The notes below the pieces were generated by a model, which was given only the letters and a program-made list of their open reading frames with translations, ran no database searches and was not told the origin of the DNA. Below, piece after piece: positions 6,097 through 9,354 of a DNA stretch of 64,000 bases. The stretch spans positions 2,247-66,246 of IMG/VR virus record IMGVR_UViG_3300031823_000008. One strand, written 5' to 3'. This DNA comes from a virus. Position 1 is the stretch's first letter. Every line of letters begins with the position of its first letter. Position numbers and translations under genes: made by a program.

Positions 6097-7128
6097 ATGT
6101 CGCAGTTTACGTCTCCTTTTGTTGAGCGGCTGGTCATCGCGCCGCAGACCTCTTTCGCCCTCGTACCGAATAGCGCCGGCGTGTGGACCAGCACCGGCGC
6201 GAAGCTCTTGCGCGCGGGATCCGGCTGCAAGATCAAGGCGGATCCGACGCTGATTACCAACCCGATGAAGACGGGCACCCGCTCCATGCAGCCTGGCGTC
6301 GCGGGGCGAAAAAGCAACAATACCTTCTCGCTTCCCAACGTGCCCATCGTGCCCTCGGGAACGGGAGGCACGCCCCCTGACATGGATATTCTCATCCAGT
6401 CCATCTTCGGCCAGGCGCCAACCGGCAGCGCGTATACGTTGCTCGACACCGGGATTGTGCCTTTTATCCTGGCGCGCTTCCAGCATCTGGCGACCACGCT
6501 TTCCCAGCAGTTCGCTATCGGTTGTATCACGACGGACTGGTCGATCCTATTCAATGGCGACGTCTTCAGCATCTCGGCGAATGGGAAGTGCTTCTGGGTC
6601 TTGGACTCGGAGAACTTCGCCAATGAAGACACGACGGGCGCGGGCGGCTTGACCGCATTCCCGCTGGAACTGGTATCGCCCACGTCTCTCGGCACCTTGC
6701 GGCAAGGATTCATCGGTACGGCGACGTTCGACGGTAACGGCGTGGACTCGACCACTTTCCCGCTTCTGAAATGCGAGATCAAGGGAAAGACCGGCAACGA
6801 TTACACGCTCGATGCTTATGGCACGTCCTACGGCGCGCTCCCGTCCGGCGGCCGGCGCATGGCGAGCCTCAGCTTTACCTTCCAGGATTGCGACACGGCA
6901 GCGCTGAACAATCTCAAGGTCAAGGCGAAGGCAAAAACGCCCATGACCATCACGTTGGTAAACGGCACGCTCACGGGGAACATCACCACGGTCGCGATCA
7001 AGGGCGTGCAGCTTGCGGTGCCGGAGTACTCGGACGAAGCAGCGCGCGTCGTTACGGCGTTCGGCGACTCACAGGCCAGCGCTTCGACAGCAACAGCGGT
7101 GGACGAATTTACGATGACTTTCAGCTAG
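6097..7128 (+). CDS. Major tail tube protein
   Basis: 343 aa beta-rich, ends DEFTMTFS; strong AAGGAG SD; upstream of chaperone and tape measure. Confidence 0.75.
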   Translation: MSQFTSPFVERLVIAPQTSFALVPNSAGVWTSTGAKLLRAGSGCKIKADPTLITNPMKTGTRSMQPGVAGRKSNNTFSLPNVPIVPSGTGGTPPDMDILIQSIFGQAPTGSAYTLLDTGIVPFILARFQHLATTLSQQFAIGCITTDWSILFNGDVFSISANGKCFWVLDSENFANEDTTGAGGLTAFPLELVSPTSLGTLRQGFIGTATFDGNGVDSTTFPLLKCEIKGKTGNDYTLDAYGTSYGALPSGGRRMASLSFTFQDCDTAALNNLKVKAKAKTPMTITLVNGTLTGNITTVAIKGVQLAVPEYSDEAARVVTAFGDSQASASTATAVDEFTMTFS

Positions 7129-7139
7129 GAGGTTTTCAG

Positions 7140-7373
7140 ATGATTCCGGTAGTCACACAGGCGGATGGTCCGGCGCTTGTGGAGCGTGGGTTGAAGATGG
7201 CCAAAAAAAGAAACCCGGTTTACCTCGAAAAGCAGGCGGGTCCCTTCGAGGTCCAAACCACCGAGGGCGTACTCACCGGAAAGCCGGGCGACTTTCTCGC
7301 TTACGATCCGATCAGCGGGCACGTATGGCCCGTCGCGGCGAGCTATGTAGCGATTCATTATGAGGACTTTTAA
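7140..7373 (+). CDS. PGDYG-like small protein, candidate nucleotide sponge
   Basis: AGGAGG SD; QTTEGVLTGKPGDFLAYD...WPV....Y matches the TxEG...GD...P...Y phage family. Confidence 0.6.
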   Translation: MIPVVTQADGPALVERGLKMAKKRNPVYLEKQAGPFEVQTTEGVLTGKPGDFLAYDPISGHVWPVAASYVAIHYEDF

Positions 7374-7376
7374 AGC

Positions 7377-7631
7377 ATGCCGGTAGACATCAATCGAGCG
7401 GCAGGCGTAACGCCTGAAGTGTCGGCGACCGTCGACGACATGTTCGAGTACCACCCATGGACCGAGCCCCAGGTCGCTGCGGGTAAGGCCGTCCGCGAAG
7501 CCCTCCGCAATGCCGTCAAAGTCATCATCGATAACGTCCCTCCGTCGCCGGATCGCACCGTCGCGATTCGAAAGCTGAGAGATGCGCGGGCCGACTGTAA
7601 TAGCGCCATCACCCACGGAGGAAAGTACTAG
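7377..7631 (+). CDS. Acb2/Tad1-like helical hairpin protein, putative cyclic-nucleotide sponge
   Basis: FEYH....Q......VR..........VPPSPDRTVAIRKLRDA....NSAI pattern. Confidence 0.7.
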   Translation: MPVDINRAAGVTPEVSATVDDMFEYHPWTEPQVAAGKAVREALRNAVKVIIDNVPPSPDRTVAIRKLRDARADCNSAITHGGKY

Positions 7632-7635
7632 CGCC

Positions 7636-8376
7636 ATGCGTTTGAACCTAGTAAAGACAGGGGTTTCAGCGCAGACTGGAGTTATGGGACGCCCATTTAT
7701 TCCAAGATCCGATTGTCTGTCATGCGGCGCGAAAGTTAAGCGCTTCGGTAAGAAGTTTTGCTCCCGAATATGCGCCGCAAAATTTCGGGTGCAACCGATA
7801 TTGGAGCGGCGCGAGCACCGTGAATGCCTGGTATGCCATCGCATGTTTTCCGAAAAACCTGCGCTCATGGAGCGCGGCAGAAAATATTGCTCTAAAGCAT
7901 GCCATGACAAATCACAGGAAAAGCACCACGATTTTGTGTGCTCGAAATGCAAGATCCCTAAGACGGCCCTCGATTTCTATGTGGACAGGACCAAGGCGCG
8001 GGGGCATGTCGCGCGGTGCAAACAATGCTATTCGGAGACCAGCAGTAAGGTTTTGGCATTTAAGCCATACCGACGTGAAGCATCGCTTCAGGCGGGAGCT
8101 GTCAGACGAGGGCTCGCCTATGAACTAACGCGCGAGCAGTTCATGACGTTCTGGCAAAAGCCCTGCACGTATTGCGGTGATGCCATCCCGACAGTGGGGC
8201 TCGATCGCGTTGAGAACGATAAGGGATATACGCTCGACAACCTTGTTTCGTGCTGCGCGGTTTGCAACTCCATGAAATCGAGCATGACCATGGCACAGTT
8301 TCTTGCGCGGTGCGGTCGGATAGCCGCAAGAACGTCGGATTGCAACTCGGCAATTACGCATGGAGGGAAGTACTGA
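7636..8376 (+). CDS. Free-standing HNH (His-Cys) endonuclease with N-terminal Zn-finger repeats
   Basis: CTYCG...GLDRVENDKGYTLDNLVSCCAVCNSMKS; FCSRIC and YCSKAC repeats. Confidence 0.85.
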   Translation: MRLNLVKTGVSAQTGVMGRPFIPRSDCLSCGAKVKRFGKKFCSRICAAKFRVQPILERREHRECLVCHRMFSEKPALMERGRKYCSKACHDKSQEKHHDFVCSKCKIPKTALDFYVDRTKARGHVARCKQCYSETSSKVLAFKPYRREASLQAGAVRRGLAYELTREQFMTFWQKPCTYCGDAIPTVGLDRVENDKGYTLDNLVSCCAVCNSMKSSMTMAQFLARCGRIAARTSDCNSAITHGGKY

Positions 8377-8380
8377 CGGC

Positions 8381-8998
8381 ATGCCCTTCTCGCCCACCAT
8401 CACGCGCGAATCGACGGCCCTCCCAGGCGTCAAGTTCACGATCCGGAGAATGGGCCTATCCCGACGCACGGACCTCGACTTCGAAACCCTGAAACTCCGT
8501 CAGCGATTGCGGGAACTCGAAGCCGACCATCCCCCGCGCACTGACCAGGAGAAGGAACTCAGCGAGCAACTCGCGATCGCGGTCAGGAAAGCCGGCGCGG
8601 TTTCGGCTGCGGAATACGACGGCGTAATGAAGGCGGACGTGGAACCCCTGGCGGCGGAGCTGGCGGCATGCGTGCCGGCGGACGTAAAGAAGGCGAGGAG
8701 TGTCCTCAACGAGGAATACGTCCAGGTCGAAAACCGGATCAGTGCCGCGTGGATCCGCGCGGGCTTCGTGTCGATCGAAGGCGGCGACGTGGACGGGATG
8801 ACGGCGGAGCAGCTCCTGGATTATGGGCCTCCCGCGCTGGCGGGTGAGATCTATGAAGCGCTGACTTCGGATGCACGCTTGGGTGGAATTGAAAAAAAAG
8901 TCTCGTTACCGCCTATCACTTTTGGCGAGGCGGAGGCTGGGGAAAAGATGAGTATAACTGCGGGCGATGTCGGGGTCCTGCCGGTGGTTACTACTTAG
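8381..8998 (+). CDS. Tail assembly chaperone (gpG-like)
   Basis: Between tube and tape measure; slippery A-run near 3' end. Confidence 0.75.
   Translation: MPFSPTITRESTALPGVKFTIRRMGLSRRTDLDFETLKLRQRLRELEADHPPRTDQEKELSEQLAIAVRKAGAVSAAEYDGVMKADVEPLAAELAACVPADVKKARSVLNEEYVQVENRISAAWIRAGFVSIEGGDVDGMTAEQLLDYGPPALAGEIYEALTSDARLGGIEKKVSLPPITFGEAEAGEKMSITAGDVGVLPVVTT
8891..8900 (+). other. Programmed -1 ribosomal frameshift site
   Basis: GAA AAA AAA G; the -1 frame is open from here to 9354. Confidence 0.8.
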
Positions 8999-9354
8999 AT
9001 CGCAATTGCTTTAAGTACTTCGCTCGGGACGTGGATCCGCGGCGAGGGAAGTGGTGGTGGCCGAGGTATACGGCGTTTCGACGGACGTGGCCGGAAGGGC
9101 AGAAACAGTGGATCAAGGAGGCCTTTCACTGGATGCTGCCGGGAATCCGGGAGTCGGAGTGCCCGGTGTCCTTGATCACGCAGAAATCGTTTGAATTGGT
9201 GCAGATCGTGAATCAGATGCAGGGAGCTTACAAATCGACGGGTTCGACGATGGGCGCGGATGAGATGCCGGGGTATCTGCTGGATGCAGTGCGGGTGTGT
9301 CAGAGCGAAGGCGTGTCCGTCGATAACGCGATGGATGAGGCGGCGAACGAATGA
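8899..9354 (+). CDS. Frameshift-extended tail chaperone C-terminal part (gpGT-like)
   Basis: -1 frame reads SLVTAYHFWRGGGWGKDEYNCGRC...DVDPRRGKWWWP, continuous with ORF 9031..9354. Confidence 0.75.
   Translation, partial: SLVTAYHFWRGGGWGKDEYNCGRCRGPAGGYYLDRNCFKYFARDVDPRRGKWWWPRYTAFRRTWPEGQKQWIKEAFHWMLPGIRESECPVSLITQKSFELVQIVNQMQGAYKSTGSTMGADEMPGYLLDAVRVCQSEGVSVDNAMDEAANE

Follow-up and report, generated by a model that had tools for sequence, protein, structure and literature searches.

Mobile nuclease genes that replace the end of a coding sequence are known from fungal mitochondria and from yeast. In the sections of PMC3630166 on mORF 'gene hybrids', the mitochondrial cases are atp6 of Allomyces macrogynus and atp6, atp9, cox2 and nad3 of Glomus; an endonuclease open reading frame (ORF) lies within the 3' part of the gene, which remains complete owing to a foreign C-terminal piece before the ORF; behind the ORF stands the native C-terminal piece, which agrees with the sister species lacking the element (perfectly so in Allomyces), and some cases show the parts in phase. 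In yeast, according to the corresponding part of Coughlan et al. 2020 (PMC7282813), the mobile unit of the WHO elements in the aldolase gene FBA1 consists of a replacement 3' end and a nuclease gene. The free-standing nucleases of the T4 seg and mob type have neither intron nor intein; in mixed infection they are believed to cut relatives that lack the nuclease and to spread in this way, the flanks being co-converted, as stated in parts of PMC2790892, PMC2330249 and PMC2988022. Here we analyzed a stretch of 64 kb of the virus record IMGVR_UViG_3300031823_000008 (66,246 bases, direct terminal repeats, rated complete), referred to as the window, in which a nuclease ORF and a small gene of 84 amino acids (aa) end in the same residues. 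With a probability of roughly 0.7, the locus represents a homing-endonuclease cassette in the 3' end of an accessory gene that is small and widespread in phages, placed at a Met codon 13 codons before the stop. Read in this way, it comprises the following features:

7377-7631, plus strand: host gene of 84 aa, now a putative hybrid of a native body (7377-7589) and the imported last 14 codons including the stop (7590-7631)
7590-8336, plus strand: putative inserted cassette of 747 bases, delimited by alignment with the relative L004 and by a contig of soil run X2
7593-7631, plus strand: copy 1, the presumably imported, functional gene end DCNSAITHGGKY with the stop TAG
7636-8376, plus strand: nuclease ORF of 246 aa; the stop-to-stop frame opens at 7582
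8338-8376, plus strand: copy 2, the native gene end, displaced and read as nuclease tail; it carries GGAGG and the stop before the next gene
8381-8998, plus strand: next gene, 205 aa, 85% protein identity to L004 and L035

The traits of an end-replacing element were found at this locus: the host gene is intact, the upstream end appears foreign and the downstream end native, and presence, absence and decayed copies occur among relatives. As in the mORF hybrids, the downstream piece is identical to that of an element-free relative (here in 40 of 40 bases) and the parts share one phase; the element resides in a phage and not in an organelle, the nuclease is a predicted His-Me finger protein instead of a LAGLIDADG or GIY-YIG enzyme, only 12-13 codons are replaced, and the displaced end forms the nuclease tail and serves the translation start of the next gene. 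The WHO elements share with it an old end downstream that provides the second homology arm, resistance through allelic sequence differences (here presumed), a zinc-finger targeting domain on the nuclease, and pseudogenes that mark a decay cycle. Unlike it, the part of PMC7282813 on these elements describes intein-derived LAGLIDADG nucleases of a nuclear genome, the replacement of about 400 bases, and meiosis, and for WHO6 it reports cleavage and resistance shown by experiment, both of which are conjectural here. The T4 enzymes, in the cited parts of those papers, are intergenic and cut a neighbouring gene at a distance, whereas the cassette of the window interrupts a coding sequence 13 codons before its stop and the nuclease ORF ends in the stop of the host gene; a T4-like intergenic layout is seen at the related loci L229 and L091. 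No phage case of an end-replacing homing nuclease was found by word searches of open-access text, supplements excluded, and the portion of PMC10448857 on nuclease genes at phage exchange boundaries contains none. As far as found, the layout has apparently not been described for phages.

The 84-aa ORF terminates in ...ARADCNSAITHGGKY-TAG and the nuclease ORF in ...ARTSDCNSAITHGGKY-TGA, the common C-terminus DCNSAITHGGKY being identical in all 12 residues. At the level of DNA, copies 1 and 2 have 26 of 39 bases in common; nine of the twelve codons and the stop differ, corresponding to 11 of 36 bases when the stop is left aside. Each copy is followed by a 4-base spacer and ATGC (CGCC-ATGC after copy 1, CGGC-ATGC after copy 2), and the likeness extends 8 bases beyond the stop. 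The 84-aa ORF has kept its full length without interruption, and 4 bases past its stop the nuclease ORF begins. When the last 16 residues of 495 stop-to-stop frames of at least 70 aa in the window were compared with each other, this pair scored 71 and the next best of the 122,265 pairs scored 38; therefore, the shared end is not due to chance.

Among nine nuclease-free relatives with the same 12 residues, 2-9 codons differ pairwise (median 7; 36 pairs), and the nine differing codons of copies 1 and 2 lie at the top of this natural range, not above it. Since the difference equals ordinary divergence between alleles, the respelling looks like that of a distant natural allele and probably needed no special selection or process. 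It does remove a direct repeat and alter the presumed target. The motif GGAGG occurs at 7617-7621 and at 8362-8366, formed by the His-Gly-Gly codons 14 bases before ATG 7636 and ATG 8381. Besides encoding residues, the conserved gene end thus serves as the ribosome-binding stretch for the gene that follows, a possible additional constraint at the level of DNA.

A scan of viral contigs yielded 31 relatives of the 84-aa gene, and a larger set of 80 relatives was kept for later comparisons. The closest nuclease-free relative, L004, has 86% protein identity to the 84-aa gene. Window positions 8337-8376 are identical to L004 in 40 of 40 bases; identity is 91% in the 66-base stretch ahead of the Met codon, and the Met codon plus gene end is 95% identical to L004 when taken with copy 2 and 64% when taken with copy 1. 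Copy 2 differs from L004, L005 and L006 by 0, 3 and 5 bases, respectively, an order which corresponds to their overall relatedness; the ends nearest to copy 1 are those of L018 and L009 (six differences each), both from distant phages. Judged by these alignments, copy 2 tracks the host phylogeny and copy 1 does not. We also considered the opposite polarity, with copy 1 native and copy 2 brought by the nuclease from an L004-like phage. A nuclease ORF with a gene-end tail, as seen in 6 of 16 homologues, would be expected either way, but the gene body beside copy 1 is L004-like (91%) while copy 1 itself is not (64%), copy 2 runs on into an L004-like next gene, and a contig of run X2 passes from the gene body straight to copy 2; the opposite polarity is therefore extremely improbable.

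A duplication in place would likewise explain two gene ends: the nuclease would have been inserted after the stop, a target of about 47 bases would have been duplicated, and copy 1 would have drifted silently. The likeness that passes the stop through the spacer and ATGC is what a duplicated target would leave, and all 12 residues are kept. Copy 1, however, would need 11 silent changes in 36 bases whereas copy 2 shows none relative to L004 and the 66 bases upstream only 9%, and copy 1 is closer to distant phages than to copy 2. Furthermore, Met precedes the D of the motif in all 31 relatives except L029 (Leu) and the distant L034, while in the window the preceding residue is Ala at copy 1 and Thr-Ser stand before copy 2; the Met codon is gone at both junctions, unlike the result of a simple duplication. 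We regard such an origin as very unlikely. Because of the identities to L004, the differences between the copies and the comparison of the Met codon, the break points are placed between 7589 and 7590 and between 8336 and 8337, and the intervening 747 bases replace the 'AT' of a Met codon.

This empty site was met in run X2, a soil run from another sample and another study than the window. One of its contigs (depth 12.4) joins 7589 to 8337 via only 'AT', which restores the Met codon. X2 also contains, as records 6, 7, 8 and 10, pieces that match the nuclease-bearing phage exactly, part of the nuclease gene among them; therefore, cassette-bearing and empty-site phages were present in one sample. 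These data bear as well on a possible artefact, namely a chimeric contig in which two strains were joined at the repeated gene end. The window is indeed a metagenome-assembled phage contig, but 26 shared bases out of 39 are too few to mislead an assembler, a single contig of run X1 (possibly the source sample of the window) agrees with the window at every position of 6900-9100, X2 and X3 contain identical pieces, some of them from the nuclease, and the exact nuclease protein is recorded from two contigs; we give such an artefact hardly any credence. Run X3 contained only two 151-base pieces of the nuclease, and nothing was drawn from it. The G+C content of 7636-8334 is 53.1%, the lowest among 633 sections of 700 bases (mean 59.5, standard deviation 2.4), and counts for a foreign origin of the nuclease stretch.

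An earlier note on this DNA, made from the letters alone, had reported identical ends with nine of twelve codons and the stop differing at 7593-7631 and 8338-8376, and a duplication reaching past the stop into the next start; both observations were confirmed by the sequence comparison, the latter in the form of the 4-base spacer and ATGC after both copies. It had also predicted beforehand that nuclease-free relatives end in the version at 8338-8376, as L004 does in 40 of 40 bases and the next two relatives do with 3 and 5 differences. The accompanying claim that this end lies directly before the next ATG was true of two of the three closest relatives: the homologue of the 205-aa gene starts 2 bases after the stop of the gene in L006 and 25 bases after it in L005, whereas in L004 the two are separated by about 420 bases, in which two small ORFs lie. 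The proposed history, in which a nuclease with a replacement 3' end entered the gene and left the old end fused to the nuclease, is supported by the identity to L004 and by the X2 contig, and we consider this insertion history well supported by the alignments.

The borrowed tail was then compared with the nuclease family, using an alignment (A1) of the window nuclease and 16 homologues (P0002-P0017; P0018 was left out). Six homologues (P0002, P0003, P0009, P0010, P0012 and P0014) carry the gene-end motif as a tail; the other ten have different ends soon after a common ...RIAxR. In the predicted structure of the window nuclease, confidence (pLDDT) drops over the tail to 62 and then to 44. On average, nuclease tails (n = 8) deviate from the consensus of the gene ends at 3.0 of 12 positions and genuine gene ends (n = 28, after omission of three that differ in length) at 0.61, with P = 3e-5 in a one-sided Mann-Whitney test whose rows are related and whose consensus was taken from the gene set. 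The tail thus does not belong to the nuclease family, and it fits a displaced end freed from its old constraint. As the window's own tail is still pristine, the insertion is probably recent. A metagenome scan gave three loci with at least 53% identity over more than half of the query, none of which are the contigs of the six tailed homologues.

The nuclease itself is predicted to consist of two zf-FCS-like fingers, a zinc ribbon and a PacI-type His-Me finger, followed by the displaced gene end as its last 12 residues. Its N-terminal two thirds are made up of cysteine-rich modules, and the homologue P0002 reaches Pfam zf-FCS; a Pfam search with the window's own protein returned no match. In PHROGs, the nuclease matched phrog_1035 ('endonuclease VII', E 1.8e-22) and several HNH families. 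A profile of 17 nuclease homologues found PacI (3ldy, E 8.6e-6) in the PDB, and a Foldseek search with the predicted structure (mean pLDDT 82.6; below 50 for residues 1-17 and 242-246) placed 3ldy_A first with E 7.3e-6, the sole match below 1e-3, the next one having E 0.016. Invariant in the 17 sequences of A1 are C177, Y179, C180, D190-R191, G197-Y198, N202, C207, C210 and N211. The position of the canonical catalytic histidine is thus occupied by arginine (D190-R191), and D190-R191 and G197-Y198 align with ...VDR...EGY of PacI. In PacI, a loop tyrosine takes the role of the catalytic histidine, according to parts of PMC5714182 and PMC3384342; from the alignment and PMC5714182 we infer that Y198 is the catalytic tyrosine. 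The likeness to PacI (3ldy/3m7k; His-Me finger 'group 20' in the cited portions of both papers) includes ...G-x-D-R...G-Y...C-x-x-C-N in place of D-H and cysteine pairs for two zinc ions. PacI differs in that it is described there as a 142-residue homodimeric restriction enzyme with an 8-base site, whereas the window protein adds three N-terminal zinc modules and lies in a mobile cassette. By fold and alignment we assign it to the PacI-type His-Me finger nucleases with zinc-finger modules. The true start may be ATG 7684 and not ATG 7636, because all homologues start at the residue matching M17 and residues 1-17 have a pLDDT below 50. A profile scan of genome contigs with the nuclease alignment gave ten distant loci and none close, and named no prophage or host.

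Occupation of the same gene end was furthermore searched for in other phages. Single-protein scans of the 31 relatives found neither a second end copy nor a nuclease homologue within 5 kb of the 84-aa gene. A profile-based nuclease scan of the 80 relatives gave matches at two loci, L229 and L260, through the zinc-finger part only; the remaining 78 have no related nuclease within 2.5 kb. Conversely, of 163 loci collected for their relatives of the nuclease (L036-L198), four have the 84-aa gene immediately before it (L053, L050, L091 and L092). At L053:2716-3043 the nuclease is frame-shifted and shortened (about 330 vs about 700 bases), with the zf-FCS start (MGRP...) and the catalytic end in different frames, and the duplicated ends differ in protein as well (...MLCNSAITFKGRY vs ...SLANAAITHRGKY); judged from this sequence it is a decayed copy, as a homing cycle predicts. 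L050 has a duplicated gene end, and at L091 and L092, which are the same sequence twice, the nuclease adjoins the gene with no duplicate end. L229:2456-3291 encodes a free-standing Endonuclease_7 protein (Pfam PF02945, E 1e-17) which has its own stop and starts 59 bases after the stop of the gene. Its homologue at L260:2303-3312 (PF02945, E 2.3e-15) has its own end replaced by ...DANSAITHNGKY, the upstream gene terminates in ...MDANSAISHNGKY, and 31 of 39 bases agree between the copies.

The L229 and L260 proteins and the window nuclease share a module with C64, C67, C85, C89, C102, C105, C128 and C131. Apparently, the catalytic head has been swapped on one zinc-finger targeting module, PacI-type in one case and endonuclease VII-type in the other. 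The same gene end is occupied in at least five other phage contexts (L053, L050, L091 = L092, L260 and L229), and one module with two heads at the same gene end in several phages is, as far as sequences can tell, the strongest comparative evidence for site-specific homing. It also bears on the explanation that ordinary recombination among mosaic phages brought the cassette, with a nuclease that is inactive or otherwise useful to the phage and a duplicated end that is a scar of the exchange. Several observations agree with such a history: nuclease activity is only inferred, the canonical catalytic histidine is absent (D190-R191), the PHROG matches include the T4 Srd-like families phrog_1400 and phrog_4592, the element is rare (2 of 80 relatives), and L053 demonstrates that such genes decay. 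Without site-specific targeting, however, the recurrence of one module with two heads at one gene end is hard to explain; PacI, the closest structure, is active with a tyrosine where histidine would stand, and the corresponding GY does not vary in A1; and decay after invasion is itself predicted by the homing cycle. We therefore consider ordinary recombination unlikely.

Scoring of nuclease tails against upstream gene ends (163 loci, median 21) ranked L084 (79) before the window (71), L050 (56) and L053 (44). L084:18-1244, on a 2-kb contig, encodes a nuclease of 42% identity whose last approximately 22 residues duplicate the C-terminus of the ORF before it; identity covers 19 of 28 residues, 12 of them with other codons. 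This looks like the same layout at a different, head-protein-like gene. Its local history seems more complex than one insertion, because the ORFs on either side are both matched to a 'major head protein' PHROG in its N-terminal part. L173 and L162, where the C-terminal helix of the nuclease is similar to an upstream ORF's end, were rejected as further cases of end replacement; the matched stretches are probably C-termini of two tandem nuclease paralogues. The stop of the functional and presumably imported end is TAG in three of three duplicated cases (window 7629-7631, L053:2710-2712 and L260:2747-2749), with TGA at the displaced copy. TAG was dropped as a signature of imported ends: it is found in 1 of 31 relatives of the first set but in 15 of 80 of the larger set, and its occurrence may be chance.

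On this reading the cassette has two parts, a replacement for the last 13 codons and the stop, taken from a distantly related allele, and a nuclease gene without its own stop. The host gene stays whole as native body plus imported end, and the original end is displaced downstream, in frame as the last 12 residues of the nuclease, where it provides the stop and a ribosome-binding stretch for the next gene. In mixed infection, the zinc-finger modules would bind the conserved end of an uninterrupted gene copy, the His-Me finger would then cut this end, and the break would be repaired from the cassette-bearing genome, with the gene body as left homology arm and the old end plus the 205-aa gene as right one. 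The invaded genome would be spared because its site is split and the left half respelled; the respelling would also remove a direct repeat that could delete the cassette.

Several points weigh against this reading. Cleavage, the cut site, protection of the invaded allele and homing through repair of the break are steps derived from the layout. Respelling alone is apparently no sign of selection for resistance, as it does not exceed the divergence of the most distant natural alleles. The empty-site contig of X2 comes from a relative of about 86% (28 other letters in 228; 33 in 217) and not from the same strain minus the cassette. The identity of copy 2 in 40 of 40 bases, beside genes 80-87% identical to L004, is above expectation (0.85^40, about 0.002, by our own arithmetic) and may mean ribosome-binding constraint or recent exchange instead of simple descent. 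The comparison of the six tailed homologues covers their proteins only. Furthermore, the element is rare, and 78 apparently uninvaded sites out of 80 could mean low activity or a narrow site preference.

If the reading of a homing cassette is correct, the empty site in hand would show a phage homing nuclease entering a coding sequence without intron or intein and leaving the gene unbroken. It would explain short 'recoded' duplications at gene ends, which annotation pipelines take for odd nuclease tails, and would pair a compact zinc-finger/His-Me nuclease with a defined, putative natural target some 30-40 bases long. That a single targeting module is found with two catalytic heads bears on how homing specificity and catalysis recombine. 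A wider proposal is tentative and, in our estimate, somewhat short of an even chance: a zinc-finger module with interchangeable PacI-type and endonuclease VII-type heads may have specialized on the last 13 codons of a widespread Acb2-like gene, each invasion may swap the most conserved segment of this gene between distant phages, and end-replacing homing may more broadly be a common, overlooked phage route into coding sequence that needs no intron or intein. Should the host gene truly be a nucleotide sponge, the element would also move pieces of an anti-defence gene between phages.

The 84-aa gene matches phrog_1454 (E 3.8e-8), and within the family conservation is highest in the last 12 residues. 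The protein is modelled with a pLDDT of 94.9 as a short helix followed by a long helical hairpin. Pfam Acb2_Tad1_hairpin (PF24729) was hit with E 0.014 and 16 bits, below the gathering cut-off of 27, and a profile search of the PDB with the family gave 'Acb2 homolog 43' (9ptq) with E 0.022. Foldseek ranked the Acb2 homologue 9ptq_A first (probability 0.99 but E 0.61; root-mean-square deviation 1.5 over 57 columns) and T4 Vs.4 (7uq2) fifth. In a wide fold search, 9ptq and 7uq2 had Z 7.1, level with many unrelated helical hairpins; such generic hairpins at Z of about 7 would speak neither for nor against Acb2. The support for Acb2 is thus concordant but weak. In L212, the 84-aa gene is followed some 320 bases further on by another, diverged family member (L212:3069-3659; profile E 6e-16); it is part of a frame of 196 aa that extends beyond it on both the N- and the C-terminal side.

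The label 'Acb2/Tad1-like' of the earlier note is in line with the concordant sub-threshold matches (E 0.014, E 0.022, first Foldseek rank of 9ptq), although the Pfam cut-off was missed. Its name 'chaperone' for the next gene was not borne out, the 205-aa product matching no family in Pfam or PHROGs. No family was named by these databases for the 343- and 77-aa products either, and the labels 'tail' and 'chaperone' derive from gene position only. The surroundings contain these further features of the ORF list:

6097-7128, plus strand: ORF of 343 aa
7140-7373, plus strand: ORF of 77 aa
9031-9354, plus strand: ORF of 107 aa
9455-12403, plus strand: ORF of 982 aa

The 77-aa ORF directly upstream of the 84-aa gene in the window is without counterpart in L004, L005, L006 and L033. 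In L004, the two small ORFs downstream of the homologue of the 84-aa gene (L004:5256-5676, about 420 bases) do not occur in the window. The surroundings of the 84-aa gene vary among close relatives and look like a hot spot for small accessory genes.

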